32,000 bases of DNA, from assembly GCA_021650915.1 (NCBI GenBank), contig CP091279.1, forward strand, positions 3,960,001-3,992,000, in the 5' to 3' direction. Under the pieces are notes generated by a model. It saw only the letters and a program-made list of their open reading frames with translations. It was not told the DNA's origin and did no database searches. A program made the position numbers and the translations under genes. Shown piece after piece: positions 1,091 through 17,577 of this stretch (positions are counted from its first letter, which is position 1; each line of letters opens with the position of its first letter). Source of the stretch: Candidatus Brocadia sp. Its GTDB lineage: Bacteria > Planctomycetota > Brocadiia > Brocadiales > Brocadiaceae.

Positions 1091-3436
1091 TTAGAACCGG
1101 AAAGCCAATGCAGCACGCACCGCAATGGGTTCGACCGGTTTAAAATGAATGTCATTATGCGAAGCGCCCTCATCTTTCAAGCGCGATGGATAATAATAAT
1201 CAATCTCGTGGTCCTCGTTGTTGAGGAGATTGAAACCCTCGACACTGAGAGTCCAGTTTTTGTTGAAATTGTAGCCCGCTTTTGCACTCAGCAGCCTGGT
1301 GGATCCGGAGCGAATACTATTGTCTTCCGTAAGAGGGCGAGGGCCAAAAAACCGCAACCGTAGTTCACTGAAGAGGCCACGCTCACCTGGCTGATGGAAT
1401 GCAATTCCTGTGGATATAACGCTGTCAATTGCGCCGGGGATGTGTCTGCCCTGCACTCCTTCACCCTCAACAGTTTCGCTAAACTCAGCGTGCGAAAATG
1501 AGAAATCAGCGTCCAGAGAGAGCCATTGGGCGGGCGTATAGTAATTTGTCCACTCGACGCCATAACGTCTCGTCGGGGCGCTGGCTTCAGTGCTGCCAGC
1601 GTCTCCGGAAAAAACGAGCTCAGAATCCATATCCAGCAACCATAACGCCAGCGTGCTTTGCAATCCCTTAACAATCGTCGTGCGCACACCAATTTCCGCC
1701 CCTTTTGTGCGCACTAAAGGATCTGCGGATTCCACAGCGTCTCCCGTTTTTGGATCAACCTGTTGCGTCACGCCGTTCCCGGAATTGCTGTGGAAACCGA
1801 AGCCTCCGCTCAAATAATACTCCGTTTTGGCCCAGGGGCCGAAGACAAGCGACCCTTTGGGGCTAACGATCGCGTCATCTCGCGTGCCAGAGTTGGCGGA
1901 TAAATCACTATTCACATCGAAGTGGTAATAATCCATCCGTAATCCGAAAACCGTGCGGAATTTGTCAGCCCATTGAATCTTGTTCTCGACATAGGGAGAG
2001 AGACTCGTTTCCCACACATCATCCTTACGCGTTGTGTCTGAAATCGTCTTACCGTCATAATCTACTTTATCCGTACGTCTTCGTTCTACAGTTTGAAACA
2101 AGCCATTGGTAATCGAATCACTGCGTATTTGCAGGCCAACGGTGTTTTCCATATCACGGTTAAACACCTCGCTATACCAGGTATGGCTGACTTTTGTGCC
2201 ACCGACCCACCGCCTGTCAATTTGCTCAAACTGATCACCCTGGGGACTGTCAAGAAAATAGGTAAAATTGGAAAACAAATCGAGATCGTAGTAAAATCCA
2301 TACAGCAGCGCCTTTGTGGAGGAGTCTGCATCGGCACGATGCCACTCAGCGGAAAGACTGTGACGTTGAGAGTCTCCGCCATCGTTTGAACCCAGTGAAT
2401 CGAAACGGCCAAAGCCTGGAACCACATCCAGGGCGCGCCGGGCAATTTGGTCGGTCGCGTTCCAGTCCCCTGCATACGACATGGATGTTATGCTATAGCC
2501 CCACTCTGGCGTGCCCTGACTGTACCTCAGCACGCCATTTATCCTCTTGTAATCATCCGGCTCGGTCCAGGGGCCGTCATTATGGAATAATTCAACGGCA
2601 TAAAGGAGATTTCCTCTTCCGGCAAGATGTGATCCGGCATACAATCCCCGCGCATAACCCAAGCTGCCGCCCTCCACCTGTGCTATGCTTTGTGGAAGGA
2701 AATCAACATAGTGGATGTCTGCGGCGCCTGTGGAGGAAAAATCGCCGAGGTCGGCAAAATAGACCCCTTTCCGGAAATCCACGCGCTCAATTAGTTCAGG
2801 AATGATAAAATTCAAATCTGTATAACCCTGGCCATGCCCATGCGTGGGCAGATTTACCGGAACGCCGTTGACCGATGTGGCGAAGTCTGTTCCATGATCA
2901 AGATTAAAGCCACGCAGAAAAAACTGATTCGCCTTACCGGCGCCACTGTGCTGGGTGACGATAACGCCGGGAACCGTCTCCAGCACTTCACCGGGACGCG
3001 AGAAGGTGCGCCATTCCAACTCGTCCTTCCCTCTGGTGCCCTGAGACGCCGTGCCTGCAATGCCAAGCAAACTGTCCGCACGTCCGCTGACCAACACTTC
3101 CGGCAAAAGAATCGCATCGCTAGAGGAATCCATTGCTTCCGTGGACTCTTGTATGATCCCCGGTGAATCATCTGTATTATTACCGCTTTCCTCTGATTGA
3201 TTGAAAGAGTTTGCATCTGCTTCATTTGCTGTTGGAGAGCTGGTTTCGGCTTGCTCCTCAGTTATGCCCTGCCCTGCTGATTGTTTTAGAATTGCCTCGT
3301 TGCTCGCGGCTTCCGTTTCTTCCGAGCGACGTCTCGTTGAAGCAGTTTCCGTCGTTTCCCCGGCCAAAGCGGTCTTGCAACAAAAGTCAGGCGCCAAAAT
3401 AATTACGAACATGACAAAAAGATACTTCATTTGCAT
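1091..3436 (-). CDS. TonB-dependent outer-membrane receptor, cobalamin-riboswitch controlled, with an acidic N-terminal extension
   Basis: 781-aa ORF with a signal peptide (MQMKYLFVMFVIILAPDFCCKTALA). About 83 aa of acidic, S/T/E-rich low complexity follow, then a plug-like region (LLPEVLVSG...VIVTQHSGAGKANQFFLRGFNLDHGTD). A long beta-rich body ends in ...ALAFRF, the terminal aromatic typical of OM barrels. Its RBS and start lie directly 3' of a cobalamin riboswitch. Confidence 0.85.
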   Translation of the reverse strand: MQMKYLFVMFVIILAPDFCCKTALAGETTETASTRRRSEETEAASNEAILKQSAGQGITEEQAETSSPTANEADANSFNQSEESGNNTDDSPGIIQESTEAMDSSSDAILLPEVLVSGRADSLLGIAGTASQGTRGKDELEWRTFSRPGEVLETVPGVIVTQHSGAGKANQFFLRGFNLDHGTDFATSVNGVPVNLPTHGHGQGYTDLNFIIPELIERVDFRKGVYFADLGDFSSTGAADIHYVDFLPQSIAQVEGGSLGYARGLYAGSHLAGRGNLLYAVELFHNDGPWTEPDDYKRINGVLRYSQGTPEWGYSITSMSYAGDWNATDQIARRALDVVPGFGRFDSLGSNDGGDSQRHSLSAEWHRADADSSTKALLYGFYYDLDLFSNFTYFLDSPQGDQFEQIDRRWVGGTKVSHTWYSEVFNRDMENTVGLQIRSDSITNGLFQTVERRRTDKVDYDGKTISDTTRKDDVWETSLSPYVENKIQWADKFRTVFGLRMDYYHFDVNSDLSANSGTRDDAIVSPKGSLVFGPWAKTEYYLSGGFGFHSNSGNGVTQQVDPKTGDAVESADPLVRTKGAEIGVRTTIVKGLQSTLALWLLDMDSELVFSGDAGSTEASAPTRRYGVEWTNYYTPAQWLSLDADFSFSHAEFSETVEGEGVQGRHIPGAIDSVISTGIAFHQPGERGLFSELRLRFFGPRPLTEDNSIRSGSTRLLSAKAGYNFNKNWTLSVEGFNLLNNEDHEIDYYYPSRLKDEGASHNDIHFKPVEPIAVRAALAFRF

Positions 3437-3473
3437 CCATCCTTCCCCCTCGGAAATAAGAATTAAAAAGTGT

Positions 3474-3775
3474 GCTCAAACAGGTCTCCTGGCTGCCGGG
3501 TCTTCCTACGTTCTGCGCCTTCCCATCCCTTGAGATCGTCTCACCGCAAAGACGCAGAGGTCGCAAAGAAAAACAGAAGATTAGGAAATAAAGAGGCCTT
3601 GTTTTTGCATTCCCATCTTCCAGGTTTCTTACCTCGTCCTCGTCCTTTTCCTTTGCGCTCTTTGCGCCTCTGCGGTGATCTCTTTCCCAATCACGACAGT
3701 GGCATAGTGCAGAGCTCGTCGCCGGTTACAGTTGCGGGGCAGCTCCCGTTTTTACGGGATTCCCTGAATATTTGA
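3474..3775 (-). promoter_or_regulatory. Cobalamin riboswitch (long variant) leading the receptor-exbBD operon
   Basis: The minus strand reads AGGGAATCCCGTAAAAACGGGAGCTGCCCCGCAACTGTAACCGG ... GCCACTGTCGTGATTGGGAAAG ... GGGAAGGCGCAG ... GGCAGCCAGGAGACCTG (B12 box). The receptor RBS and ATG follow about 35 nt later. An extra long helix is inserted between the core halves (arms about 3537-3567 and 3660-3682). Confidence 0.85.
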
Positions 3776-4080
3776 ACTATTAATAATAAGGACGCAGATT
3801 TCCGATGATTACCGCAGACTTTGTCGTGAACGCACAGTCGAATGACAATAATTTTATCTTCTGGTTTTTAAATCCTGATAATCAGTATTCATCTGTGTCC
3901 GATTTCGTAAGTTTTTATCTTTTTTTATCCCCTCCCTTCATAAATATTCCACGAATCCTCTTTCTTAAAGGGGAAGTCTTCAACCAGACTGATCAAAAAA
4001 TTTTTGCCTATAATGTGTATGTATTGGCAAACTGCCGTTTTTCCTGCTAGTTGTATACAAAGATTGATTTTTAGGAATGT

Positions 4081-4434
4081 CTATTCAGACCCTTCCGGCA
4101 CATAGATTACCTTTCCATCTGTTAACCGATAAGCAATCCCTAATCGGGTGCCTTCTCCCTGTAGTTTTTTATCGGTAACCTTTTCCACTTTTACCTGCTT
4201 CCCCTTTTTTGTAACAATCTCTACCTGGCCATTTTCTCTTTGTTTAACCATGGTAATCTCTGTTTTTGGAGAAAGGAGGTCGAGGAGGCTATACGCGCTA
4301 ATTAATGCCCCGATAAGACCGACAATAAAGACAACCCCTACGTCGAATAGATTTGCAACACCTGACATGGGATCTTCCTGATGAAGATCAACATCCCTTC
4401 CTATCACCCTGCGCCTTTTCTTGAGATATCTCAT
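4081..4434 (-). CDS. DUF2149-like single-TM protein (partner of the MotA/ExbB-like channel)
   Basis: The ORF track gives a TTG start at 4509. I prefer the ATG at 4434 (MRYLKKRRRVIGRDVDLHQEDPMSGVANLFDVGVVFIVGLIGAL...), because a basic N-terminus followed by the 'DPMSGVANLFDV' TM segment is how I recall DUF2149 proteins beginning. The topology is ExbD-like (short cytoplasmic tail, one TM, soluble C-domain). It lies directly after the MotA-like gene. Confidence 0.65.
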   Translation of the reverse strand: MRYLKKRRRVIGRDVDLHQEDPMSGVANLFDVGVVFIVGLIGALISAYSLLDLLSPKTEITMVKQRENGQVEIVTKKGKQVKVEKVTDKKLQGEGTRLGIAYRLTDGKVIYVPEGSE

Positions 4435-4521
4435 TGTGTATTTTTGTTCACCGCAGAGACGCACATATTCCGGATAGCGGTTGGGAAATTGAGTGATTGA
4501 GATTCCCAACTTCCCAGTTTC

Positions 4522-5172
4522 TTATCCTTGTCTCCGCTCCTCTGAGGCAAACGACTCCTTATCTTTCATAATATACTCTGTAAAATATTCAAGGTTTTTT
4601 ATATCTTCATGAATCCAACGATTCTTCATCATAGAGAGGAAATATGCTACGATTCCGATTGCTAATCCAACGACCGTTGTGGTAAAGGCAATGATGATAT
4701 TACTTGAGAGTTTTTCAAGGTCGCCGTGCGATAGTGCAGACAATGCAGGCCCCATCGGGATTATCGTTCCCATCAATCCTAACGTAGGACCTGCACGGAT
4801 CATGAGACGAAGTTTGTCCAGACTTCTGGTCATCTCTTGTTCTTTACTCTGCAACAGATATTCAACCCGAATTTCTTTACCGTGATCCCCCATCCTCAAT
4901 TCATTTACCAATTCATCAACATATACCCGAAAATACCGTGGCATTCCCTGGATTTTTTGAATTTGAAGCGGAGAAGATTCTGTAAAATACCCAACAAATT
5001 CCTTTGGATCCCTTCTGCCGCCAAGCCCCCTTCGTTCTGCATATTCAGAAACGAAACCTCCCACGATTATAATCATCCAAATAAAAAAGATGATTAATAA
5101 AATCATGACGGGATAGAGCATTGCCGATGAGATAAGGGATAGAGTATTTTGTAATACATTGATCGTGCTCAT
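4522..5172 (-). CDS. MotA/TolQ/ExbB-family proton channel protein (second copy, CobN-associated)
   Basis: 216-aa ORF with an N-terminal TM (MLYPVMILLIIFFIWMIIIVGGF) and a C-terminal channel motif (GPTLGLMGTIIPMGPAL ... IIIAFTTTVVGLAIGIVAYFL). It is clearly distinct from the ExbB at 463-1071. Confidence 0.8.
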   Translation of the reverse strand: MSTINVLQNTLSLISSAMLYPVMILLIIFFIWMIIIVGGFVSEYAERRGLGGRRDPKEFVGYFTESSPLQIQKIQGMPRYFRVYVDELVNELRMGDHGKEIRVEYLLQSKEQEMTRSLDKLRLMIRAGPTLGLMGTIIPMGPALSALSHGDLEKLSSNIIIAFTTTVVGLAIGIVAYFLSMMKNRWIHEDIKNLEYFTEYIMKDKESFASEERRQG

Positions 5173-5283
5173 AGTAAATTGTCCTTTAATACGAAAATTA
5201 CCGGATGTTCAAATACCGTTGTAATTTAAACCTTTAAATCTGAACAAAACGTTTCATGGCAAAACGGATTATTTCAAGTTAAA

Positions 5284-5314
5284 CATGGACAAACAAGTTT
5301 GTCCATGCCACCCC
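5284..5314. repeat. Palindromic intergenic element, copy 1 (CATGGACAAAC-AA-GTTTGTCCATG + CCACCCC)
   Basis: A perfect 11-bp inverted repeat followed by CCACCC lies between the cobN-like stop and the motA-like start. Related copies sit at 12761-12793 and 26563-26593. Confidence 0.8.
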
Positions 5315-5350
5315 AAAATCCGCTTAAATAAAATAAAAATTCCTATACAA

Positions 5351-8300
5351 TTAAAACTTCTTCCTTACCCATCCATAAAAGAAAAGACCGACGCAGCTTA
5401 TTATTACGATGACAGGAAACCATTGCCTGCCTGACCTATTTACCCATGCGGATGCATTATCAGGCACTCCTGCTGATTTTTCCTCGTTCGTTTTTACCTC
5501 CTCCATCTCGAATCCATTGACCGGTTCCGTTTCTTCAACTGGCAATGCTTTATGAGCTTCCTTTTGTCCGCCCTGGGAAAGAGGGAATTCATTCTTTGCG
5601 CCGGAAAATAAAAAGTCTGTTGATGTCTCATGGGGTTTTTCTTCTGATTTTTGCTCAGCAATTTTTGCAGGAACAGGCGTTTGTTCTAACCGATTTAGTA
5701 AGGGTGTCTGAGCTTGAACAACCTTATCCATCTCTGTCTTTCGTTCGTCTAATAGTTTGCCGGTAGCCGCCTTTAAGATACCCGCATAGGTATTTAAACT
5801 ATCTTGATCCGCAAGACCGGAACCAGACAAGACATTCATTACATATTCCTGGAATGCCGGATTGTTGCAGGTATGTTCACAACAGGCGACTCCATGTTTT
5901 GCCACCGTTTCCACATATTCCTTCGCCAAGGTTTGTTTGTCTTCTTCTGAGGGATGCCAGTAGCCCTTCCGCACAACCTCAAGCATGCGGGCAGTAATGG
6001 CCTGATAGGCATACGGATTCTTTTTATTGAAAAACTCCTTCAAATCCATTCCGTATTTATCCTCGACATAAACCCCGAACGTTTGCTCCCAACGGGCAGC
6101 ATCTATTGTCTCTGGCACCGTAACCTGCCAGCCCCACATATTCTCAATAAATTCCGACATCTTATTTGCCCCCTCAAAGCCTTCCTTCTTCATCCCCTCA
6201 ATCCATTGAGGATTCAGATAGCGGGATCGCAGTTCCATGCCCATCATCCTATCGATCGGCGTCATTTCCGGCTTGGCCGGATTCATAATATTCGTAACAG
6301 CGAGGTCCGGAGATTTTCCATCGAGTTCCCGGACTGTCGCGGCAAGTCCGCCTGCGTACATATAGAAGTCATCGTTATCTAGGGTCCCATAAACATTGGT
6401 GGAACGGCTGTGGATTACCATCTTTGTCCCGCTTAATATCATTTTATATACCTCCTCCATCGGTTCTCCCCATAAACCATTCCCGTAACCATGGCTCATA
6501 CGCTTCAAATATTCGTTTGCAACCACAGAATCATCCTCCCATGTCCCGCTTGCACTCACAATCCGGGAAACATTCAGATCATAACGCCCCGGAGCCTCAT
6601 CAAAGATCCTCACGGAAGCATATTGCTCAGCCTTTTTTTGCGACCAGCCTGACTGGACCAGTTTTTCAGTCAATTCCTTGATGTGTTGCCGAACCAGGTT
6701 ATCTTCCTCATCAAGTTTCTTCACCATCTGAACGGCCTGATCAATATACTGAGTTAATTGACCAAACATCTCTTCTGCCGCCGAAGATACAACGATATCG
6801 ATCCGTGGACGACCTAATTTTTCTTTCGGTATGACGCTTATTCCCGTCACCCTCCCCCATTCATTCCAAACAGGCTCGACGCCCAATAAATAAAGTATCT
6901 GCGACTCTAATATCCCCTCATGCCGTATCGTCTCAGTACCCCAGATGACAAATGATAATTTTTCCGGATATTTCCCATTGTTTTTTTCCCGATAATTATC
7001 AAGGAGTTCCCGGGTCAATTTCACCCCCACCTGCCACGCCTCTTTCTTGGGAATCTTATCGGGATTAAAGGCATAAAAGTTTTTTCCCGTTGGCAATGAA
7101 TCCGGATTCCGTACAGGGTCATTCCCCGTGCCCGTTGTTATAAATCGACCTTCTAATGATTTAACCGTGTTTGCCAGTTCCTGCCTTGCGCTGTCCTGAA
7201 TTTTTTTATCCAGTTCCTCGGCAGAGATATCTTTAACAACCTCTTGTATAGCCTGAATAGTTGAGTTTCGAAGTAACTCGTCGGGAACGCTCCCAAAGGT
7301 ATGAAGACCGTAAGGCATATTCAGTTGTTTCATCTCTTTGAGAAATTCTTCAATCTCGTGAATAACTTCATGATCAAATTTGTGCGGGCCGCCTTCCTCC
7401 GTATTAACAGACAAGAATCCGCTGATATCGATATCTTTATCAAGCCCCAGTTCTTTTACCTTCTTTATAATATTTTCCTGATACTGCCTTGCGTGTTCGG
7501 CGCCCTGTTCAAGTGCCTGGTCATGACTGCTAATCAATTCCTCAAGTTCGGCATACTCGTGGTAAAGTCCTCCCTTTTTCAAGGGCGGAATCATGTGATC
7601 AATAATAACCGCAGAACCCCTGCGTTTCGCAACAAGCCCCTCGCCAACGTCATCCACGATATAGGGATAGATTACTGGCAAGTCCTGAATTAATGCCTCT
7701 GGCGGGTCTTCATCAGAAAGACCATTACTCTTTCCAGGCAACCACTCGTGTGTGCCATGTGTGCCAAAATGAATAACAGCGTCAGCGCCAAAACCATATT
7801 TCAGCCATAAATAAACCCCTACATACTGATGATGCGGAAACAGGTCCTGACTATGGAACATAGCCTCATGGTCTTCCATCCAGCCCCTTACCGGCTGAGG
7901 CAGGATAATAACATTTCCCTGTCTTACTGCCGGAATAACCATATATTTTTTGCCTTGTTTTGTATCCCTCCACATCATTACATCCGACGTTTCAACCGGC
8001 CCCCAGTCTTTATTAACCTCTTTCATAAAATCTCCGGGCAAATTTCTGGTCCATCTTTGATATTCCTCCAAAGGCAGTAATACACATTTCCCGTTTTTTA
8101 CCATCTCATCAAGCTCGCCCGGCGCCCAATTCCCAACGTTTCTCCCATATCGAAGTGAATTCTCAAGGAGTAGTTCCTGATTCATTGCATCATTGCCGAT
8201 ATCGTATCCGGCCGCCTTCAGTGTCTTTAATACGTTGTTAATACTGGCGAAGACGTTCAGGTAGCTCGCGCCGATATGCTGTTTCCCGGGGGGGTAATTC

Positions 8301-9487
8301 CAATAAAAGATTGCCACTCTTTTATCTTTATTATCCTTTCTTTGTAAATTAATCCAGGTATTCATGCGGTTAACAGCCCGGTTAATTCGGTCGGCTATAG
8401 GTTTTCGTTCTTCAATAAAAAAGCCCGTTTCATCATCCCTCTCACGAATGCGATGTGAAACAACGACAGGCTGAATAAGACCTGCAATCTCAGGGATAGC
8501 TAATTGCCAGCTTACCTCTAATGAACTGAGGCCTTCAGGGTCGGTCTTCCATGCCTTTCCATCCTTCCCGTACAGTGTAATTAAATTCAGTATCGGCACT
8601 CCGCATTTTTCCAGTACATGAGCAGCTTCGAAATCTGAAAACCGGAATAAAAAGGAAAGTATGCCAGAGATCCTTGGGATGCCTCTTGAATCTATCAGTA
8701 GTTTCTCAACTGCTGCCGCTTCAGGATACCCAAATGCAACGAAGGCGTTGTATCCCTTTTCTTCCAACTTACGAATTAATTCATCCTCTACCTCATTTTG
8801 CCCCTGTTCACAAAAAGATGAATAGGTTAATACGGCAATCCATTCTGCATTTTGTTTAAAATAGCCTCCCTTCTTATACCACTCCGCATATTCTTCAAAT
8901 GTCTCAAAGAACATTCCCTGTGAATTGTGCCGATGATAGTAACCGTTCTTTAGTAACTTTTGGGGCGCCGCTCCTTTAATCCCGGAAATTCCAGAATACT
9001 TTGCCAGAGAGAATAACACCATATTCTGGAAATTTTCGATGCCTCCGCAATCAAAATAAGAGCGGAATTCCTCATCATAGGTGAGACCTATTTCGATATA
9101 CTGCTTATCTAATCCGGCCGAATGGTTTATCGGTAATATATACGCCCCATGAGCAATAGCCTTCCTGATTGCCTCCTGATCAAAACCTGTTTGCGTTAAA
9201 GTTGATATCCTTATGCCCATAATATCGATAACAACGATATCAGATCCCTCTATCTCATGAGGATTGAAGGTGGAATCCAGGTCTGTGTCGCTGATAAGCT
9301 CAAAATCTACTCGGTCTCTGAGAAACGGGTATTCTTTCCAAATATTTTTTATTGCTTTGGCAACTGCCGGTGTCAAATAGTTTCCCACCAGGAAAGTATA
9401 TTTTATACGCTCGGTTTCTCCTGCAAGAGAAGATGACAGGAAAGAAATACATACAATAAGCAGAGTTAAAACTGTGTATCTTCTCAT
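5351..9487 (-). CDS. cobN: CobN/Mg-chelatase-family large subunit homologue with N-terminal signal peptide and C-terminal membrane anchor
   Basis: 1378-aa ORF of CobN-like length and content throughout (for example ...HFGTHGTHEWLPGK..., ...VIWGTETIRHEG..., ...YGTLDNDDFYMYAGG...). It starts with MRRYTVLTLLIVCISFLSSSLAGE (signal-peptide-like). It ends with a low-complexity linker, one hydrophobic helix and a basic tail (WFPVIVIISCVGLFFYGWVRKKF). An SD-like GGGGTGA precedes the ATG. Confidence 0.8.
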   Translation of the reverse strand: MRRYTVLTLLIVCISFLSSSLAGETERIKYTFLVGNYLTPAVAKAIKNIWKEYPFLRDRVDFELISDTDLDSTFNPHEIEGSDIVVIDIMGIRISTLTQTGFDQEAIRKAIAHGAYILPINHSAGLDKQYIEIGLTYDEEFRSYFDCGGIENFQNMVLFSLAKYSGISGIKGAAPQKLLKNGYYHRHNSQGMFFETFEEYAEWYKKGGYFKQNAEWIAVLTYSSFCEQGQNEVEDELIRKLEEKGYNAFVAFGYPEAAAVEKLLIDSRGIPRISGILSFLFRFSDFEAAHVLEKCGVPILNLITLYGKDGKAWKTDPEGLSSLEVSWQLAIPEIAGLIQPVVVSHRIRERDDETGFFIEERKPIADRINRAVNRMNTWINLQRKDNKDKRVAIFYWNYPPGKQHIGASYLNVFASINNVLKTLKAAGYDIGNDAMNQELLLENSLRYGRNVGNWAPGELDEMVKNGKCVLLPLEEYQRWTRNLPGDFMKEVNKDWGPVETSDVMMWRDTKQGKKYMVIPAVRQGNVIILPQPVRGWMEDHEAMFHSQDLFPHHQYVGVYLWLKYGFGADAVIHFGTHGTHEWLPGKSNGLSDEDPPEALIQDLPVIYPYIVDDVGEGLVAKRRGSAVIIDHMIPPLKKGGLYHEYAELEELISSHDQALEQGAEHARQYQENIIKKVKELGLDKDIDISGFLSVNTEEGGPHKFDHEVIHEIEEFLKEMKQLNMPYGLHTFGSVPDELLRNSTIQAIQEVVKDISAEELDKKIQDSARQELANTVKSLEGRFITTGTGNDPVRNPDSLPTGKNFYAFNPDKIPKKEAWQVGVKLTRELLDNYREKNNGKYPEKLSFVIWGTETIRHEGILESQILYLLGVEPVWNEWGRVTGISVIPKEKLGRPRIDIVVSSAAEEMFGQLTQYIDQAVQMVKKLDEEDNLVRQHIKELTEKLVQSGWSQKKAEQYASVRIFDEAPGRYDLNVSRIVSASGTWEDDSVVANEYLKRMSHGYGNGLWGEPMEEVYKMILSGTKMVIHSRSTNVYGTLDNDDFYMYAGGLAATVRELDGKSPDLAVTNIMNPAKPEMTPIDRMMGMELRSRYLNPQWIEGMKKEGFEGANKMSEFIENMWGWQVTVPETIDAARWEQTFGVYVEDKYGMDLKEFFNKKNPYAYQAITARMLEVVRKGYWHPSEEDKQTLAKEYVETVAKHGVACCEHTCNNPAFQEYVMNVLSGSGLADQDSLNTYAGILKAATGKLLDERKTEMDKVVQAQTPLLNRLEQTPVPAKIAEQKSEEKPHETSTDFLFSGAKNEFPLSQGGQKEAHKALPVEETEPVNGFEMEEVKTNEEKSAGVPDNASAWVNRSGRQWFPVIVIISCVGLFFYGWVRKKF

Positions 9488-9604
9488 TCATCGTCACCCC
9501 TAAAAAGTTAATAATTATTTAATCTTGCGCAGTATACCAGATCAGGTCTTCAGCAGCTTTTCAGATTCTGGCGCAACATTTATGAAATTGAATACCATAA
9601 TCTC

Positions 9605-9994
9605 TTACTCGCCCTTTTTAATCGTGCGAGAGCAGACATCTGTTGCGTATTTCCACTTCACATGGTCACCCTCTTTCAGTATGCATTTATTTGCAAAGGA
9701 CGTCGCATGTTTACCATTAATATCGTAGTACCAAACCTTATCTCCAACTCGTCCTACTACGTTATCAATTGATGTCACGAGAAAATATTCCTCCTTGTAT
9801 TCTGATTCGACCTTTGCAACAGCCTGGAGCGCCTCCAGGGCAGTAATACCCCGTTTCCATTGTATCTCTACTTTACGGTTCTGGTGTAATCCACCATAAT
9901 CAACTTCTACGGTTACCTTTTGACTGGCACAAAATGCAATTGGTAAAAAAACGAAAAAGACAAATATTCCTGTTATCCAATTTAATCGCTTCAT
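9605..9994 (-). CDS. Secreted DUF4430-like protein (transcobalamin/intrinsic-factor beta-domain-like; candidate corrinoid binder)
   Basis: 129-aa ORF with a signal peptide (MKRLNWITGIFVFFVFLPIAFCAS). The body fits the DUF4430 pattern as I recall it (V.V.VDYG...G.TALEALQ...V.SI....G....W.Y..NG......A....LKEGD.V.W.Y). A strong SD (AAAGGAGG) is present, and the gene starts 15 nt after the receptor stop. Confidence 0.65.
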   Translation of the reverse strand: MKRLNWITGIFVFFVFLPIAFCASQKVTVEVDYGGLHQNRKVEIQWKRGITALEALQAVAKVESEYKEEYFLVTSIDNVVGRVGDKVWYYDINGKHATSFANKCILKEGDHVKWKYATDVCSRTIKKGE

Positions 9995-10009
9995 TTTTTT
10001 CTTCCTCCT

Positions 10010-12388
10010 TTAAAATTTAAATTCAAATCCTCCATACGCTGTAAAACCAAGCGAACTAAAACCGGTTACTTCTTCGTAATGATAATCAAAAAGGTTTTCA
10101 AGCCTGATATATCCGGTCATCATCTTTGTAATGTCGTAACTTGTTGACACATTCGCTGTCCAGTAATTATCCATTTCTGTCCCATCACTATCGATTCTGT
10201 CTCTGACCATAACACCAACCACATTAACATTCCACTTCTCCATCGGCCGGGTATTAACCCCAAGTGTCGCCCGGTTTCTCGGTCTGCGCGGTAGTTGTTG
10301 ACCCTTTTCTCTGTCTTCCGTCTTTGTATACGTGTAGGTGCCGGTAAGAGAAAGTTTGGGAAATGGTTTATAGGTGAGCGATGTCTCAATTCCCTCAGAT
10401 TCTGCCCTTGCTACATTTTCTGCCAAGAAACTACCGTCAGGTTGAATTGCAGCAGTAATCAAATCCGTGAAATCGTTCTCAAAGTAGGTAACGTCCAGAG
10501 TTAACGTATCTTTAAGAATCTCCTTCTCAACACCAAAATCCCAACCCTTACTCTTTTCGGGACCGAGGTTCGGATTGCCATAGAAAGGGAAAAAGAGTTC
10601 ATTGATACTTGGAGCGCGAAAACCGGTTCCCCACGACCCATGGAATCTGGTATCAATCTCATCTATATTGTAAGACACCGTCGTTCTGTAAGTGAGATTA
10701 TTCCCAAATGTGCTGTAATCATCATACCGTAACCCGGCCGTCCAGTTTAACGAATCAAATAATTTTATCTGGTTTTGCAAAAAAACTGAATTATTCCAAA
10801 AGGTTTTTTTGTCGAATACGCCGTCATTCTCACCCTCCCGTGCTTCGTATTCATAGCCTACGGTTAATGTATCAATGTCAAGGAGGGCAAAGTCAGATTG
10901 GTGTTCAAACCTCCAAACCCTTGTAGGAATGCGGAATTCTCCTGATGCATCCGTTGGATCAAATCCTTTCAGCTCTGTATCATTAACGGACACAAGGACT
11001 GATGGCGTCCAGAAATCAAAAAAGGTCTTGTTAACCCTTGTAGAAAAAAGGACTTCATCCGTCGTTTGGCGCCGGTCAGGGTCGTCTACAGGACCGACGC
11101 CGTAGAGATACGCATCAGTTTCGAAATCAGAGTGTGACCCTCTTACGGTAGTATCAATCCGTCCATCGTCCATAAAATTCCATCCCAGACGCGCTGAGCC
11201 GGTGAAATTCTCACAGGCATCATTTTCGTCTCCACTATGGGCGGCAGATATCCCATGGGTTTTCAGATAAGAACCTCCGACCGAATAATCGAACCTTTCT
11301 TTGCCACCGGAAACACTAACGCTCTCCCGGTAGGTATCACGCATTCCGTACTCCGTCCCCAAGGTAACTTTATTTTCTCCCTGCCCCTTTTTTGTAAAAA
11401 TAGAGACAACGCCGCCCATCGCATCCGAACCATACAATGTACTCTGCGGACCGCGCAAGATCTCGACCCTCTCAATGTTATCCGTTGTAAGATTTGCAAA
11501 ATCAAACGCCCCTGTTGTCGTACTATTCATCTGTACGCCGTCAACAAATACAAGGGTTTGGGCAGAAGATGCGCCTCTGATAAACATACTTGTCGTCCCG
11601 CCTATTCCCTGAGTTCTGGTAACCTCAAGCCCCGGCGCCTGGCGCAAAACATCAAGAAGAAGGGGCGCCTTGCCATTTTTAATATCTTTTTCTGTAATAA
11701 CCGTTACAGAACTACCGGTATTCCTTAATAATTGCTTTGTCCTCGTGGGAGTAACAACCGTCTCTTCGTTATCACGGAACATGTTTTCTTCCTTCTTTTC
11801 TTCAGTTTTATTTTCCTCCTTCTTTTCACTCATCTCCTTACTTTCGGCATCATTTTTACTCCCACTTTGATTTTGTTCTTCATTCTCATTTGTGTTTTTA
11901 TTCTTATCGTTGATTTTTTTATCCGTCGCTGCCTCTCCCTTCATTTTATTATTCTCGCCCCCATTTTGATCTTTATTCTCAATTTGTTTCTCCCCGTCCC
12001 CTCTTATAGCAGACCGATCAAACTCCTCTTTAAATATAAGCCTTCTTGATGATGACCTCAAATCATATTCGGGATCATTTATTTTCGGTATCTTAGAGGA
12101 CTGTTCTGTACCACGGTACTGTTCGGGCAAATAATCTCCTTCCTGGTTATTTTCCGTTTTGTCCGTACCCTCTTTTTTGATGGAGATAACCAAAGGTGGA
12201 GTCATCTGGTTATCACCTGGCGTATTTTGATTTTCTCTGATTTGTCTTTTCAACTCCATCAGTTTTCTCTTTAAATCCTCATTTTCCTGAATAAGCGATT
12301 CCATCGTTTTTTCGTCTGCAAAGCAATAAGAGTTTGATAATGATAAACTGAGTGATACAAAAATTATCTGCAAATAACAGCCCTTCAT
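10010..12388 (-). CDS. btuB: TonB-dependent receptor, BtuB-like core, with ~184-aa K/E/N-rich N-terminal extension
   Basis: The ORF-track start (12460) would overlap the riboswitch B12 box. I prefer the ATG at 12388 (MKGCYLQIIFVSLSLSLSNSYCFA, a signal peptide), which sits where the twin leader at 3436 places its start. A TonB-box-like/plug region is present (EETVVTPTRTKQ...VTVITEKDI...FIRGASSAQTLVFVDGVQMN...RVEILRGPQSTLYGSDAMGGVVSIFTKKG). The barrel is about 585 aa (BtuB-sized) and ends ...GGFEFKF. The btuB symbol is inferred from riboswitch control and size. Confidence 0.8.
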   Translation of the reverse strand: MKGCYLQIIFVSLSLSLSNSYCFADEKTMESLIQENEDLKRKLMELKRQIRENQNTPGDNQMTPPLVISIKKEGTDKTENNQEGDYLPEQYRGTEQSSKIPKINDPEYDLRSSSRRLIFKEEFDRSAIRGDGEKQIENKDQNGGENNKMKGEAATDKKINDKNKNTNENEEQNQSGSKNDAESKEMSEKKEENKTEEKKEENMFRDNEETVVTPTRTKQLLRNTGSSVTVITEKDIKNGKAPLLLDVLRQAPGLEVTRTQGIGGTTSMFIRGASSAQTLVFVDGVQMNSTTTGAFDFANLTTDNIERVEILRGPQSTLYGSDAMGGVVSIFTKKGQGENKVTLGTEYGMRDTYRESVSVSGGKERFDYSVGGSYLKTHGISAAHSGDENDACENFTGSARLGWNFMDDGRIDTTVRGSHSDFETDAYLYGVGPVDDPDRRQTTDEVLFSTRVNKTFFDFWTPSVLVSVNDTELKGFDPTDASGEFRIPTRVWRFEHQSDFALLDIDTLTVGYEYEAREGENDGVFDKKTFWNNSVFLQNQIKLFDSLNWTAGLRYDDYSTFGNNLTYRTTVSYNIDEIDTRFHGSWGTGFRAPSINELFFPFYGNPNLGPEKSKGWDFGVEKEILKDTLTLDVTYFENDFTDLITAAIQPDGSFLAENVARAESEGIETSLTYKPFPKLSLTGTYTYTKTEDREKGQQLPRRPRNRATLGVNTRPMEKWNVNVVGVMVRDRIDSDGTEMDNYWTANVSTSYDITKMMTGYIRLENLFDYHYEEVTGFSSLGFTAYGGFEFKF

Positions 12389-12429
12389 CCATCCCTTCTC
12401 CCCTCGGAAATAAGAATTAATAAATGTGT

Positions 12430-12730
12430 GCTCAAACAGGTCTCCTGGCTGCCGGGTCATCCTACGTTCTGCGCCTTCCCATCCCTTGAGATCGTCTCAC
12501 CGCAAAGACGCAGAGGTCGCAAAGAAAAACAGAAGATTAGGAAATAAAGAGGCCTTGTTATTGCATTCCCATCTTCCAGGTTTCTTACCTCGTCCTCGTC
12601 CTTTTCCTTTGCGCTCTTTGCGCCTCTGCGGTGATCTCTTTCCCAATCACGACAGTGGCATAGTGCAGAGCTCGTCACCGGTTACAGTTGCGGGGCAGCT
12701 CCCGTTTTTACGGGATTCCCTGAATATTTG
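12430..12730 (-). promoter_or_regulatory. Cobalamin riboswitch (long variant), near-identical twin of 3474-3775
   Basis: It has the same core, B12 box (GGCAGCCAGGAGACCTG) and inserted helix as copy 1. By eye I see only three substitutions over about 300 nt. It is followed by the receptor RBS and start. Confidence 0.85.
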
Positions 12731-12760
12731 AACTATGATAAACCTGAGATTATTACGCAA

Positions 12761-12820: not shown

Positions 12821-12866
12821 AAATAAAAAAGCCCGTTCCTTCGCATTGAGAAGAAACGGGCTTTTA
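12821..12866 (-). terminator. Intrinsic terminator (expression platform of the upstream riboswitch)
   Basis: The minus strand reads AAAAGCCCGTT-tcttctcaatgcgaagg-AACGGGCTTTT followed by TTATTTAAT. This is a GC-containing stem plus a U-run, about 55 nt 3' of the B12 box of the 12921-13135 riboswitch. Confidence 0.7.
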
Positions 12867-12920
12867 CAAGATGGACATCACGCTTCACCTCCTTTACGAC
12901 GAAGAAGTTTTCAGCCAAAC

Positions 12921-13135
12921 ACTACAGGCAGGTCTTCTGACTACGGATCATCCTACTGATTGCACCTTCCCGAAAGGCCGTTTAAGAGGCCTTTCAGTGG
13001 TTCTTGCAACGTTCGTCACCGATTACAGCGGCGGTACCGTTCCCTTTTCTCCGAATTTCTGACACAAAGAACTACGCATGAATAGTTATCAGAAATTCGT
13101 TGGAGTGGGGATTCCCTTTGAGCCCCGATAAATAC
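12921..13135 (-). promoter_or_regulatory. Cobalamin riboswitch (short variant), first of a tandem pair
   Basis: The minus strand reads CAAAGGGAATCCCC ... GGGAACGGTACCGCCGCTGTAATCGGTGACGAA ... CCACTGAAAGGCC...GGCCTTTCGGGAAGGTGCAA ... GTAGTCAGAAGACCTGCCTG (B12 box). It is a paralogue of the cbiM leader riboswitch, not of the adjacent long variant. Confidence 0.8.
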
Positions 13136-13199
13136 CGGAGCGCCTGTATGTGGAATTTTCCTTATATTATTTTGTCTTTACATAACGTATCCTTTCCAT

Positions 13200-16121
13200 T
13201 CAAAAAAGCGTGCCTTCAACACGTTGTTTTGTAAGTTTAGAGTATTCCAATATCTCCCCTACAGAAGCCCCTTTTGACTGCATGCTATAGAACGTATTTT
13301 CACCTACAAGGGCGTAAGACCAATTACCGTCATCCCGATCATCCGGTTTTAATTCATTTATCTTCTTTAACCAGTCCAGCGCCGACTGTTTCTTCAGGAG
13401 AACATTTTCATCCTTAATATCCTTCTGTGCCTTTGTTTCCACAAGATAGATATGCTTTGGAGTTTTTATAATAAAATCAGGATAATAAGACGACAGAATA
13501 CCATCGCTCCTGATGTAGTTCAGATGCGCAAAATCATGATACATTTCACTAATCTTAAGAAATGCCTTAACCGCACCGTCATGGTCACAAGCCAGCATGA
13601 AATTCTTTTCCAATGCACCTTTATTAGATGGATACGGAAGCCTTTCGTAGATTGTCTTTACCATATCAAGAGAAAAATTCTCCCGCATTTTTAATTGTTC
13701 TACCTGTGAAAAGTATTGCTTTATTACAATGGCATCCTGCACATCAACGGTATTCTGCATCTCATATAATACCTTGCTAAGTTCCTTTATGATGTGCTCA
13801 GTAATACCGGTTTGTGACAGCAAAAGCACGCGCCAGTTATTGTCTTCCAGAGGATTGAATTCCTGATTAAAGAGATTGTGCCTTACAAAGTCATCAATTA
13901 ACTGTACCAGACTAGCTTGATTAATCTGCATAGCGGGATAGTCCTTTGTCCTACGCTGGGTAATCTTGACAACGGTGCTTGTGATTATCTTTACCAACTT
14001 TGATAAAAACTCATTGTAGCTTTTCGCAGTGAAAAGCTCCGCCGTAACCTTGTAGTCGCCAAACCTTGTCTTTACGGTCATTTCTTCTGAATAGAACGTT
14101 TCTCCTTTTTCACACACCATCAGTTTAAGCTGGTCGAGATTGTACCACTGCATAATTTTTAGATTGTCCAGAGAAGGCATTACGTCTTTTAAAAATTCCT
14201 CTCTTTCCTGTATTATTACAGGCCAGTACAGGTCGTAATCTTTATAATTCTGTTTGAGTCCGACCTTGATAATATCCCCTAAAATACCTTCTCTATCCCT
14301 GGGTAATTCAGTTATTTCGCCAACAAGCCCTTCTTTTATAAGGTCATCGTAAAATTCAATAAATGCCGGGTGTTCTACAATGCTTAATATATCCAAATAG
14401 TTTGATGGCGCTTCCTTCCTTTTAAGGAGCCTTGTTCTGTTTTCTTCCTTTGCGTCCTGAAACTCGGGCTCTCTCCACATTAACCGCAAACCTCTTCCAA
14501 GTATCTGCTCCAGGAGTATCGGCGCCTGTGTTGAGCGTAATGGCACGATAACACAGATATTATTCACATCGAACCCTTCGCGGAGCATGAGCACCGAAAC
14601 GATAACCTTTGGTTTTTCGTGTTTGTCAACATTAAACAGTCTTTGTTTAATCGTGTCCCATTCCTTTGCGGGAATGCTCCCTTTCTTATCAGAGTCTATC
14701 TGGACAACGTCTTCTTCACCAAGACCTTCGGCCTGTGTTAAAAACCCGGTAACATAAGGAGAAACCGCTGTGTCCTCACATATAACAAGCATCTTTGGAT
14801 GTTTATCCGTAATGCCATTTTTATCTTGCGTCAAATCCGTAAATTCCTTTTCAAGTATTTTCAGTTTTGTCAGACCAGCGCGGAGCATCAATTTCTGTCC
14901 CTCTGACAGCCCTATTACTTTATTGCCATCCCTCATTGCCCTGAAATCAAGCTCCATCGTGGCAATTTCCTTGCGTCTGTCTAATGTAATCGTTTTGACA
15001 AGCCCTCCGTGAATTGCGTTCCTCAAATCGAAATCGACAACAATATGTGGGAAATAATGCTTTGTCCTGCGCTGCCCGCTTCCCGCCACATCATAAGGAG
15101 TTGCAGAAAAATCAATTTGGATAAACTTCTTTCCCTTGTTTTCAGAAATTTTATTCAACGACTTCTGCCATTCCACCTCTGAGACAATCCCCGCCCGTTT
15201 TGTTTCGTGTATGTGGTGCGCCTCATCATTAAAAACAACGATGCTTTCTAACTTTGCCAGATACTCAATCTCACCGCCGCTTAAATATTTGTTGTCCAGG
15301 GTATTTAAATCATGCCCGGCAGAAGTGCCTGGCGTCACCGGGAATATTTCTTTTACCGCTACCGATGGGTCTTCAAGTGGCGAGGGGTTGCTATCAACCT
15401 CTTCTTCCTCCCCCGCAAGCAAATGCCAGTTGGTTATAGCAATTAACCCGGAGCCGGTTACTTTACGTCCAATTTCTTCCTTCCTGACAACGCAGGTCTG
15501 GATGAATCCATAGACTTCATCCCTGTATGCAGGCGGGATAAACAGCTTCTCATATTGTTTAAAATCTGAAGCCTCAAAGTCGCGAATTCCATCTTCCCTT
15601 TGCTTTCCAAGGTAGGCGTCCAGCAATCTTTCATATACGATAAGACCCGGGGCGACAAGCAGAAAGTTTGTGGAATAGCATCCGCTTGGCTTCTCCTCGT
15701 GCCTCGCATTCAAGTACTGCCAGATAAGCAGGGCGTTCATTACCCACGTCTTGCCCGTGCCAGTCGCCATCTTCATGCAATATTTGGGATGACTGAATTT
15801 GTCTTTTCGCAGGTAACTCAAGTCCATCTCTGCCAGGATTTCATTACTTATCATTGAATACAAATCAAACACAGACTCCGGCCTTAGTATTTCATGCGCA
15901 TAAATCGTATTTAAAATCGCCTGCCGTTGTCCGTCGTGAAAATTAACGTGACGGGTTTCCGTGAAGGCATCAGAGAACCAGAATCGCAGTAAATCCTGGG
16001 TAATGGGGGTTGCTTTCGCAAGAAATTCACCGCTATCCCACACACGATGAACAATCCCTGTTATTTCCCTGGCAAATTTTAAGGGAATTTCCCTGGTTCC
16101 TGTGTTTAACGATATGGACAT
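13200..16121 (-). CDS. res: Type III restriction enzyme, Res subunit (SF2 helicase + C-terminal PD-(D/E)xK nuclease)
   Basis: 973-aa ORF with helicase motif I (MATGTGKTWVM), motif II (VVFNDEAHHI), motif III-like (DFSATPY) and motif VI-like (QILGRGLRL). A C-terminal nuclease-like motif is present (YYPDFIIKT...YLVETKAQKD). A Mod gene lies on the same strand upstream. Confidence 0.85.
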   Translation of the reverse strand: MSISLNTGTREIPLKFAREITGIVHRVWDSGEFLAKATPITQDLLRFWFSDAFTETRHVNFHDGQRQAILNTIYAHEILRPESVFDLYSMISNEILAEMDLSYLRKDKFSHPKYCMKMATGTGKTWVMNALLIWQYLNARHEEKPSGCYSTNFLLVAPGLIVYERLLDAYLGKQREDGIRDFEASDFKQYEKLFIPPAYRDEVYGFIQTCVVRKEEIGRKVTGSGLIAITNWHLLAGEEEEVDSNPSPLEDPSVAVKEIFPVTPGTSAGHDLNTLDNKYLSGGEIEYLAKLESIVVFNDEAHHIHETKRAGIVSEVEWQKSLNKISENKGKKFIQIDFSATPYDVAGSGQRRTKHYFPHIVVDFDLRNAIHGGLVKTITLDRRKEIATMELDFRAMRDGNKVIGLSEGQKLMLRAGLTKLKILEKEFTDLTQDKNGITDKHPKMLVICEDTAVSPYVTGFLTQAEGLGEEDVVQIDSDKKGSIPAKEWDTIKQRLFNVDKHEKPKVIVSVLMLREGFDVNNICVIVPLRSTQAPILLEQILGRGLRLMWREPEFQDAKEENRTRLLKRKEAPSNYLDILSIVEHPAFIEFYDDLIKEGLVGEITELPRDREGILGDIIKVGLKQNYKDYDLYWPVIIQEREEFLKDVMPSLDNLKIMQWYNLDQLKLMVCEKGETFYSEEMTVKTRFGDYKVTAELFTAKSYNEFLSKLVKIITSTVVKITQRRTKDYPAMQINQASLVQLIDDFVRHNLFNQEFNPLEDNNWRVLLLSQTGITEHIIKELSKVLYEMQNTVDVQDAIVIKQYFSQVEQLKMRENFSLDMVKTIYERLPYPSNKGALEKNFMLACDHDGAVKAFLKISEMYHDFAHLNYIRSDGILSSYYPDFIIKTPKHIYLVETKAQKDIKDENVLLKKQSALDWLKKINELKPDDRDDGNWSYALVGENTFYSMQSKGASVGEILEYSKLTKQRVEGTLF

Positions 16122-16210
16122 TATAGTGTTACTCTATAAAAACTTCTTTTTCTGTAAGGTTTTCTTTGTGATCTTTGTAGTTGAACTTTTTTGGTTGCGG
16201 CTGTGCTGCG
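16122..16210. repeat. Miniature derivative of the 21731-22192 repeat family, filling the whole res/AlbA_2 intergenic spacer
   Basis: 16122-16165 (TATAGTGTTACTCTATAAAAACTTCTTTTTCTGTAAGGTTTTC) matches the 5' end of the ~230-bp unit. 16191-16210 (TTGGTTGCGGCTGTGCTGCG) matches its 3' end. The interior hairpin is absent. The element abuts the res ATG on one side and the upstream gene's stop on the other. Confidence 0.7.
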
Positions 16211-17560: not shown

Positions 17561-17577
17561 ACATAATAAACTTTACG

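Follow-up and report, generated by a model that had tools for sequence, protein, structure and literature searches.

A five-gene operon of Candidatus Brocadia sp. (GCA_021650915.1, contig CP091279.1, positions 3,960,001 to 3,992,000) lies behind tandem cobalamin riboswitches and encodes, all on the minus strand, a BtuB-like TonB-dependent receptor, a DUF4430 protein, a CobN-like protein, a MotA-like protein, and a DUF2149 protein. The window refers to the whole 32,000-nucleotide (nt) stretch, and coordinates below are positions within it. The operon very probably specifies a periplasmic corrinoid- or cobalt-acquisition machine of the BtuS/Hmu type. On balance, we favor reading it as the anammox version of a widespread BtuS/Hmu-type module, that is, as a B12-repressed, TonB-dependent operon for the acquisition of corrinoids and cobalt. 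Whether the MotA-like/DUF2149 pair works for the CobN-like protein, and not just for TonB, appears evenly poised, and the removal of cobalt from imported corrinoids is offered as a tentative and rather doubtful proposal for the chemistry.

The kind of system is already known, because the locus fits both the naming of B12-regulated CobN-like proteins as BtuS by Rodionov in 2003, as cited in PMC6460266, and the hmu-like operons with riboswitches that were pointed out in 2023 (PMC10100974). The novelty implied by an earlier reading of the same DNA (here, the initial annotation) therefore does not stand. The locus adds a member from anammox Planctomycetota to this group. Its accessory set is distinctive in having a DUF4430 protein, no DUF2162 protein, and tandem riboswitches. 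A literature search on anammox, cobalamin, and TonB returned no description of this operon.

Riboswitches, receptor, and DUF4430 protein

The operon genes were assigned by a Pfam domain search of the open reading frames (ORFs), and the leader was scored against the Rfam cobalamin riboswitch model RF00174. The aptamer of riboswitch 1, the first of the tandem pair (12910 to 13162, minus strand), scores 75.0 bits (E value, 6e-17), and riboswitch 2 (12418 to 12746, minus strand) scores 71.9 bits, against a gathering score of 31.5. The five same-strand genes thus sit behind cobalamin riboswitches, as the initial annotation had claimed. Between the two lies an intrinsic-terminator-like hairpin (12827 to 12865, minus strand) with a 16-bp stem, 7 of whose pairs are GC, and a T-run after it. 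No terminator-like site between positions 3300 and 13400 is stronger, and none inside the operon is comparable; the hairpin is the probable expression platform of riboswitch 1. Riboswitch 2 holds an insertion of ∼165 nt and is followed immediately by the ribosome binding site (RBS) of the receptor gene, GAGGGGAGAAGGGA. Translational control by riboswitch 2 is likely, because it ends only 30 nt upstream of the receptor start codon. The tandem arrangement is kept in Kuenenia, Scalindua, Jettenia, and other Brocadia.

The BtuB-like outer membrane receptor (10010 to 12388, minus strand) consists of a Plug domain (101 bits) and a TonB_dep_Rec barrel (175 bits), preceded by a signal peptide and a TonB-box-like sequence, ETVVTPT. 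Judging from the sequence, its start is the ATG at 12388, which has a strong RBS and gives a protein of 792 amino acids (aa); the longer ORF (10010 to 12460) overlaps riboswitch 2. Its best NCBIfam family is TIGR01779 (TonB-B12), at 310 bits and under the cutoff of 599.7, and it scores 214 against a cutoff of 836 for NF007926. The initial annotation had placed a BtuB-like receptor and a DUF4430 protein ahead of the CobN-like gene, and both assignments were recovered, that of the receptor with this score below the cutoff. Both receptors encoded in the window, this one and a second at 1091 to 3436, have a long low-complexity N-terminal extension ahead of the TonB box and plug. The extension comprises ∼190 E/K/N-rich residues with a coiled-coil-like stretch in the first receptor and ∼110 E/S/T/A-rich residues in the second.

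The DUF4430 gene (9605 to 9994, minus strand) matches PF14478 at 44.7 bits (gathering score, 23.8; E value, 1.9e-11), and its product has, by hydropathy, a hydrophobic N-terminal signal that predicts secretion. A phmmer search of the protein against the PDB gave no match, and a fold search was used instead. The AlphaFold2 (AF2) model has a predicted local distance difference test (pLDDT) score of 83.7. All 19 significant Foldseek matches in the PDB were either the DUF4430 structure 3u7z or beta-domains of transcobalamin, intrinsic factor, and haptocorrin (E values, 4e-6 to 1e-4), led by entries 3u7z, 5no0, 2pmv, 2bb6, and 4kki. DUF4430 and the transcobalamin beta-domain have the same fold (Foldseek E value, ∼1e-5; template modeling score, 0.75 for the isolated beta-domain; root mean square deviation, 1.6 to 2.5 Å over ∼99 residues), although their sequence identity is just 9 to 18%. 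Unlike transcobalamin, intrinsic factor, and haptocorrin, the DUF4430 protein is a stand-alone secreted bacterial protein without an alpha-domain. An isolated human beta-domain bound to cyanocobalamin (5np4) is among the fold matches. On the basis of the modeled fold, the DUF4430 protein is likely a corrinoid binder in the place held by HmuY in hmu operons.

The CobN-like protein and its relatives

The CobN-like gene (5351 to 9487, minus strand) encodes a 1378-aa protein matching PF02514 at 1050 bits. Topology was called from Kyte-Doolittle hydropathy and the (-3,-1) rule. Residues 3 to 25 form a hydrophobic stretch (MRR, the h-region, and SLA-GE) that fits a Sec signal peptide or anchor. At the other end, ∼115 E/K/A/P-rich residues precede a hydrophobic helix (1355 to 1375) that is followed by RKKF. 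The protein is accordingly predicted to be exported and tethered to the membrane on the periplasmic side. The signal peptide, low-complexity linker, hydrophobic helix, and basic tail had all been pointed out in the initial annotation, and the terminal segments are conserved in the family, with an N-terminal hydrophobic segment in 74/81 relatives and a C-terminal transmembrane segment in 64/81. The protein is 98% identical to another from Candidatus Brocadia sp., and orthologs with 63 to 79% identity occur in all anammox genera.

The best match in the PDB is HmuS (9d26; E value, 4e-148), ahead of CobN and ChlH. HmuS is a periplasmic, membrane-bound, NADH-dependent heme dechelatase of Bacteroides, encoded in hmuYRSTUV, that converts heme to protoporphyrin IX and Fe(II) and has transmembrane segments at both ends (PMC12583661; PDB 9d26/9p4s); the initial annotation had mentioned this activity as a proposal, and it has since been shown. 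The CobN-like protein carries the motifs HFGTHGTHEW (573 to 582), GTLDNDDFYMYAGG, and ACCEHTCNNP, and residues H573, H577, E581, and D1037-N-D-D1040 are invariant in the family alignment. In the phmmer alignment to 9d26, ALSLDHVYEFMGG stands opposite the domain-V motif TLDNDDFYMYAGG, with the metal-facing His-1209 of HmuS replaced by Asp and Glu-1212 by Met. At the His-1209 position, the motif agrees with that of CobN (LDSDDYYQFEGG), which likewise has Asp. DNDD was found in 93/116 close homologs checked (at least 1200 aa), the remainder not fitting the search pattern. Since the pattern used to find the loci itself selected for DNDD, its invariance among the fetched loci was dropped as a meaningful observation, and the claim of invariance refers to similarity-selected sets.

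Other features of HmuS are absent or altered. The Met-rich insertion (∼120 aa in domain IV of HmuS) is missing: the HmuS alignment skips from 689 to 909 while the query proceeds from 740 to 746, and in a MAFFT alignment the region spans 25 residues here versus 100 to 440 in SLDH-type proteins. His-254 of HmuS, like Met-79 a head/neck heme ligand, aligns with Ser-274, in a poorly aligned stretch. Met-79 (INGMGLRI), which marks a second, noncatalytic tetrapyrrole site at the head/neck of HmuS (PMC12583661), aligns with M90 (IDIMGIRI). The CobN-like protein also falls under all nine CobN/BchH equivalog cutoffs (NF004645, 970 versus 1619; TIGR02257, 619.5 versus 822). A cluster-representative search with residues 140 to 1235 retrieved 5082 representatives of the CobN/ChlH superfamily at an E value of ≤1e-3. 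Both hydrophobic termini are present in nearly all of the 135 top full-length representatives, which split by domain-V motif into DNDD (the window protein), SLDH (HmuS), T[ST]DDP, STDHP, and xNHH types.

Two further motifs mark the exported clade. One is CCxHTCNNP, with an invariant Cys pair, within the C-terminal ∼180 aa (5351 to 5900; ACCEHTCNNP in the window protein). The other, G[YF][EK]M..E...SSG..W, is juxtamembrane, just ahead of the C-terminal helix, and is present in an archaeal member as well. Alignments to CobN and ChlH stop short of both. The Cys pair could form a redox or metal site, and the juxtamembrane motif could be a docking site.

The likeness to hmuYRSTUV drawn in the initial annotation is correct. 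Each system has a TonB receptor, an extracellular or periplasmic ligand binder (a putative one here), a CobN-family protein with membrane segments at both ends, a MotA/ExbB-like protein, and a DUF2149 protein, without AAA+ subunits; HmuU is the MotA/TolQ/ExbB protein and HmuV the DUF2149 protein (PMC11681262), and the roles of HmuT, HmuU, and HmuV have been described as unclear (PMC12094164). HmuS and the CobN-like protein share the HFG(T/A)HG motif (superfamily-wide; His-538 in HmuS), the Glu after it, a C-terminal CxxxxC-N, and, going by the alignment, probably the Met-79 equivalent. The systems differ in that Hmu is under iron control whereas cobalamin riboswitches are present here, DUF4430 replaces HmuY, HmuT/DUF2162 is lacking, and LSLDHxxEFMGG (His-1209/Glu-1212) of HmuS corresponds to TLDNDDFYMYAGG. 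No small ORF that could be an overlooked HmuT was found on the operon strand in the gaps at 5173 to 5350 and 3790 to 4081. The CobN-like protein is not HmuS proper, because it has no Met-rich insertion and has Asp in place of His-1209, as in CobN. Judged by its sequence, the locus would operate like Hmu, yet it stands outside the HmuS family as defined in PMC12583661.

The locus also matches the description of BtuS, of which B. fragilis BtuS1 is an example: under B12 regulation, a gene related to cobN is grouped with one for a BtuB-type receptor, and its product is predicted to be periplasmic and membrane anchored. The two are likened by this description. The role proposed for BtuS is the salvage of metallo-tetrapyrroles. 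Unlike BtuS, the module here belongs to Planctomycetota (anammox) and has a DUF4430 binder and tandem riboswitches but no DUF2162. CobN (CobNST), whose substrate is a corrin, and ChlH/BchH share with the CobN-like protein PF02514 over the whole body and the cleft motifs HxGxHGxxE[WF] and DxDD. They are, however, cytoplasmic and need CobS/CobT or ChlI/ChlD and ATP, and a 2026 study describes terminal membrane segments in HmuS homologs but not in CobN and ChlH (PMC13227078). The CobN-like protein has instead a signal-like N terminus, the extra Cys motif, a linker, and a transmembrane helix, with no AAA+ partner. It is not CobN, because it is under all equivalog cutoffs, is predicted to be exported, and has no CobS/T in the window.

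The MotA-like/DUF2149 pair, related loci, and genomic surroundings

The MotA-like gene (4522 to 5172, minus strand) matches PF01618 at 52.5 bits (gathering score, 22.9) and encodes a MotA/TolQ/ExbB-family proton-channel protein homologous to HmuU. The DUF2149 gene (4081 to 4434, minus strand) matches PF09919 at 101 bits and encodes a single-transmembrane protein homologous to HmuV. Both had been recognized after the CobN-like gene in the initial annotation. The MotA-like protein has an LGLMGT motif, and its family is homologous to the canonical ExbB set (hhalign probability, 94.9%; E value, 4.8e-8), while none of the ExbB, TolQ, and MotA equivalog models reaches its cutoff. For DUF2149, the start is probably the ATG at 4434 rather than 4509, in agreement with the family consensus MRYLKRRR. 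The protein comprises a basic N terminus, one transmembrane helix (22 to 54) with an invariant Asp at its start (D31 in ANLFDV), and a small beta-rich periplasmic part; a single transmembrane segment is found in 66/68 members. This topology is like that of ExbD, TolR, and MotB, but the identification of DUF2149 as ExbD was rejected: there is no PF02472 match, and hhalign gives a probability of 0.5 to 0.6%, aligning only a 10-residue stretch around the transmembrane Asp. The AF2 model of DUF2149 (pLDDT, 62.6) is confident only in the transmembrane helix.

Related loci were surveyed in a sample of Pfam-annotated contigs and 80 species-representative genome loci, containing 83 CobN-like ORFs of ≥1200 aa. 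For annotation, hidden Markov models derived from Pfam-confirmed examples were used together with a riboswitch profile for nhmmer, and genes within 3.5 kb on the same strand were counted as neighbors. In eight test loci, Rfam confirmed 15/15 nhmmer riboswitch matches and added none. A MotA-like or DUF2149 gene was near 74/83 of the exported CobN-like genes, with most exceptions at contig ends, and a MotA-like gene adjoined the CobN-like gene in 71/83, so that the co-conservation expected in the initial annotation was observed. Receptors were near 46/83 and TonB near 8/83. A polytopic membrane protein, either DUF2162 or an unassigned family, h187, was upstream in 54/83; the equivalence of h187 and DUF2162 was considered, but the hhalign match is weak (probability, 8.7%).

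Riboswitches were found upstream in 10/10 Brocadia-type loci (with DUF4430). Among DUF2162-type loci (Thermodesulfobacteriota, Nitrospirota, and others), 23 of the 25 that could be scored have one and 2 do not, with 6 more cut by contig ends. The h187-type loci (Acidobacteriota and alpha- and gammaproteobacteria) have none (0/19), and three of them adjoin divergent riboswitch-controlled btuFCD-receptor operons. The co-occurrence with RF00174 raised in the initial annotation thus holds for the first two types.

The initial annotation had also reported that no AAA+ chelatase partner is encoded in the window. No Mg_chelatase, AAA_5, or VWA gene was found with Pfam among the 18 window ORFs scanned or in the Pfam-annotated related loci. 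Of 15 Walker-A unassigned ORFs (≥250 aa) in the surveyed loci, the 10 that were scanned include no ChlI/ChlD or CobS/CobT, which may be encoded elsewhere in the genome.

Corrinoid-related genes recur in these neighborhoods. Ten DUF2162-type loci have a ∼680-aa Peripla_BP_2-CbiZ (BtuF-CbiZ) fusion beside the CobN-like gene (L004 at 7940 to 10000, L052, L060, L061, L065, L068, L073, L079, L082, and L087), CbiZ being an adenosylcobinamide amidohydrolase. The fusions carry N-terminal signal peptides in 10/10 cases, which implies corrinoid remodeling outside the cytoplasm. CobA/BtuR and btuFCD are also present in related loci.

Several loci have distinctive arrangements. In Kuenenia, a single operon encodes receptor-CobN-like-ExbB-ExbD-TonB-MotA-like-DUF2149. 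An archaeal contig (L089, 6223 to 13145) combines DUF2162-MotA_ExbB-DUF2149 with a CobN-like gene of 1714 aa; translation and transcription genes (eIF2-gamma, Spt4, and S24e) flank them, and no receptor, TonB, or riboswitch is present at the locus. A T[ST]DDP-type locus (L090, 6462 to 12769) has the order receptor-hypothetical-MotA-like-DUF2149-CobN-like-HupE/UreJ, HupE/UreJ being a metal permease. An ExbB-ExbD-ExbD-TonB set runs divergently, the locus lacks a riboswitch, and its gene content hints at a nickel- or cobalt-releasing subtype. Desulfospira joergensenii (L008/L076) has two complete CobN-like/DUF2162/MotA-like/DUF2149 modules in tandem, with CN_hydrolase and receptor genes between them and CbiK and a canonical ExbB-ExbD-TonB set nearby.

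Downstream of the operon, riboswitch 3 (3462 to 3790, minus strand; RF00174, 70.7 bits), a near-identical copy of riboswitch 2, governs a second same-strand operon. It comprises a siderophore-receptor-like TonB-dependent receptor (1091 to 3436, minus strand; Plug and barrel domains, with a weak TonB-B12 match), canonical ExbB (463 to 1071, minus strand; PF01618, 107 bits), and canonical ExbD (44 to 466, minus strand; PF02472, 94.8 bits). A TonB gene is expected just past the window edge, beyond ExbB/ExbD, and TonB-dependent receptor-ExbB-ExbD-TonB occupies the equivalent place in other Brocadia and Kuenenia loci. The leaders of the two receptor genes (12381 to 12760 and 3425 to 3804, both minus strand) are 92.8% identical, with a core of ∼320 nt at 97 to 100%. 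The shared region covers the ∼165-nt aptamer insertion and the RBS, and the receptor genes behind it differ; a leader was apparently duplicated, or copied by gene conversion, not long ago.

Upstream of the receptor operon, riboswitch 4 (29827 to 30043; RF00174, 99.2 bits) governs a block of cbiM, cbiN, cbiQ, cbiO, cobD, a transposase-like ORF, and cobQ (22324 to 30043, minus strand; CbiM, ABC_tran, aminotransferase, and CobQ domains). In 7 related Brocadia and Jettenia genomes, cbiMNQO-cobD-cobQ directly adjoins the tandem-riboswitch operon, whereas ∼9 kb of restriction-modification, toxin, and transposase-like DNA lies between them in this window. The mobile/defense block that separates cobQ from the operon (13200 to 25249) includes a type III restriction enzyme (13200 to 16121), a Schlafen/AlbA_2 protein (16211 to 17419), a DNA methylase (17578 to 19728), a PemK-like toxin (21102 to 21431), and a 3′ fragment of cobQ (20612 to 21028; 64% aa identity to CobQ residues 404 to 509). 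The transposase-like ORF (24017 to 25249), between cobQ and cobD, has no Pfam match. Farther out, a c-di-GMP-I riboswitch (RF01051, 54 bits) lies at 31525 to 31636 on the plus strand, downstream of an MltA-like lytic transglycosylase gene (30196 to 31416), and the gene under its control falls outside the window.

Proposed mechanism and alternatives

Under the favored reading, both riboswitches of the operon would open when adenosylcobalamin is scarce. The receptor would then import a corrinoid, driven by the canonical ExbB-ExbD-TonB set encoded next door, and DUF4430 would hold it, standing in for the hemophore HmuY. In the periplasm, the CobN-like body, tethered through its C-terminal helix and a flexible linker of ∼115 residues, would admit the corrin to its central cleft, where His577/Glu581 of HFGTHGTHEW would lie opposite the chelatase-type DNDD, and would act there on the metal center. 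The MotA-like/DUF2149 pair would supply the CobN-like protein with work driven by the proton motive force (PMF), a power source suggested because neither ATP nor the AAA+ motor (ChlI/D, CobS/T) is available beyond the cytoplasm. Cobalt might thereby be freed from imported, possibly unusable, corrinoids and be taken up by CbiMNQO for de novo B12 synthesis, as HmuS releases Fe2+ for FeoB. We infer the export of the CobN-like body, the corrinoid ligand, and the PMF coupling through MotA-like/DUF2149, and the reaction itself is a guess.

The link to corrinoids comes from the conservation of the riboswitches, the transcobalamin-beta fold of DUF4430, and the exported BtuF-CbiZ fusions. The link to cobalt comes from the cbiMNQO synteny in 7 genomes, the HupE/UreJ gene after the T[ST]DDP-type CobN-like gene, and the lack of an inner membrane corrinoid transporter in the Brocadia operon. 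The suggestion in the initial annotation of a corrinoid-dedicated analog of Hmu gains from the first of these links, while the (de)chelatase activity that it attached to the analog does not.

Several points weigh against the mechanism as drawn. The export of the CobN-like protein is predicted from hydropathy, and any activity of the B12-regulated members is one that we infer from comparison. We know of no precedent for taking cobalt out of an intact corrin by an enzyme or by mild chemistry. Moreover, the mechanism of HmuS is not simply transferable, because the cleft has the chelatase-type Asp (DNDD) and not the His pair of HmuS. The CobN-like family is not uniformly linked to B12, since no riboswitch was found in the 19 h187-type loci. 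BtuF-CbiZ and BtuFCD in related loci suggest that whole corrinoids are remodeled and imported, not destroyed. For DUF2149, homology to ExbD could not be detected, and the AF2 model is of low quality. Finally, at least five relatives (L004, L040, L042, L063, and L065) have a TonB gene immediately ahead of DUF2162-MotA-DUF2149 at loci that lack ExbB/ExbD, and up to eight loci are without ExbB/ExbD.

This last arrangement bears on whether the pair could be a divergent ExbB/ExbD that energizes TonB for the adjacent receptor, with the CobN-like protein working without energy coupling. The homology of the MotA-like protein to ExbB, the ExbD-like topology and transmembrane Asp of DUF2149, and the legend of Fig. 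1 in PMC12583661, which gives HmuU/V this role, all point the same way. The position of TonB directly before the MotA-like genes in some relatives, and the canonical ExbB-ExbD(-TonB) set next door, leave room for such a plain Ton-energizer role. The PMF-energized (de)chelatase or remodeling machine of the initial annotation is conjecture. The pair nevertheless tracks the CobN-like gene (74/83) much more closely than it does receptors (46/83) or TonB (8/83). In Kuenenia, Brocadia, and others, the pair shares its operon or neighborhood with a full canonical ExbB-ExbD-TonB set, and it is kept in the archaeon without a receptor or TonB. Because of these three observations, we consider that the pair may serve the CobN-like protein and not only the receptor, and we regard the purely TonB-directed role as unlikely while taking it seriously. 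A scaffold without metal chemistry is a further, fairly unlikely alternative. The CobN-like protein would then be a large, membrane-tethered periplasmic platform that binds corrinoid and passes ligand from the receptor or DUF4430 to remodeling enzymes, such as exported CbiZ, or to an inner membrane importer, with MotA-like/DUF2149 driving release or conformational cycling. The BtuF-CbiZ fusions and BtuFCD in related operons do indicate that intact corrinoids continue into the cell, and the Met of the noncatalytic Met-79 site of HmuS appears to be retained as M90. In B. fragilis, moreover, btuS1 btuS2 mutants still dechelated heme, for which the authors suggested a noncatalytic role (PMC6460266), but HmuS was later shown to be catalytic (PMC12583661). 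The invariance of the cleft residues for metal chemistry (H573, H577, E581, and D1037-N-D-D1040) would be unexpected in a pure carrier, and the Brocadia operon provides neither an importer nor BtuF to receive the ligand.

The remaining alternatives concern the ligand and the direction of the reaction. Canonical CobN binds Co2+, and the receptor could import a small cobalt complex from which the CobN-like protein strips the ion, or holds it, for CbiMNQO. The operon's surroundings, with the late B12 pathway of the organism itself and cbiMNQO in conserved synteny, would suit such a role, as would HupE/UreJ after the related subtype, a receptor under the BtuB equivalog cutoff, and the deposition of 3u7z as a "putative metal binding protein." B12-riboswitch-controlled TonB receptors have also been predicted to be cobalt specific (PMC7689651). 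We nonetheless think this improbable: the best family of the receptor is still TonB-B12, the DUF4430 fold is that of the beta-domain through which transcobalamin, intrinsic factor, and haptocorrin contact the corrinoid, related operons contain CbiZ and BtuF, and all characterized members of the protein family handle tetrapyrroles. Forward chelation outside the cytoplasm, in which cobalt or another metal is inserted into metal-free or incomplete corrinoids and a PMF stator replaces CobS/CobT, would be in keeping with the chelatase-type cleft (DNDD, like DSDD of CobN, and not HmuS-type) and with a PMF device in place of the AAA+ motor. It is highly improbable, given that metal-free corrinoids are rare in nature, that periplasmic metallation has no obvious benefit, and that the nearest characterized exported homolog runs in reverse (PMC12583661). 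It can hardly be credited that the operon is a heme or iron system like Hmu with incidental B12 riboswitches. Anammox bacteria are very heme rich, and the best solved homolog is HmuS, but riboswitch control is kept across phyla, the accessory genes are corrinoid related (DUF4430, CbiZ, BtuF, and CobA), and HmuY is absent, as are His-1209, the Met-rich insertion of HmuS, and apparently His-254.

The interpretation in the initial annotation is, overall, partly supported. It came through the four tests that it had set for itself, which concerned the hydrophobic ends of the CobN-like protein, adjacent ChlI/ChlD or CobS/CobT genes, the co-conservation of the MotA-like and DUF2149 genes, and the RF00174 scores of the leaders.

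Class I chelatases are ATP-driven cytoplasmic machines. A very large chelatase clade is instead predicted to be exported, double anchored, and paired with MotA-like/DUF2149, and only its heme branch (HmuS) has a known reaction. A stronger version of our proposal is a long shot: a PMF stator formed by MotA-like and DUF2149 would replace the AAA+ ATPase as the motor of a class I chelatase outside the cytoplasm, and the CobN-like protein would demetallate corrinoids and pass cobalt to CbiMNQO. If true, this would be the first case of an enzyme taking cobalt out of a corrin, and the same pairing of motor and client would account for what HmuU and HmuV do and for the CobN paralogs found in methanogens. 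The B12-riboswitch branch, with members among anammox bacteria, sulfate reducers, and Nitrospirota, gives clean and regulated access to the exported clade, from which one can ask whether these proteins act on corrinoids, how they are energized without ATP, and what the many archaeal CobN paralogs do. The answers would bear on the cobalt and B12 economy of anammox reactors and anoxic sediments.

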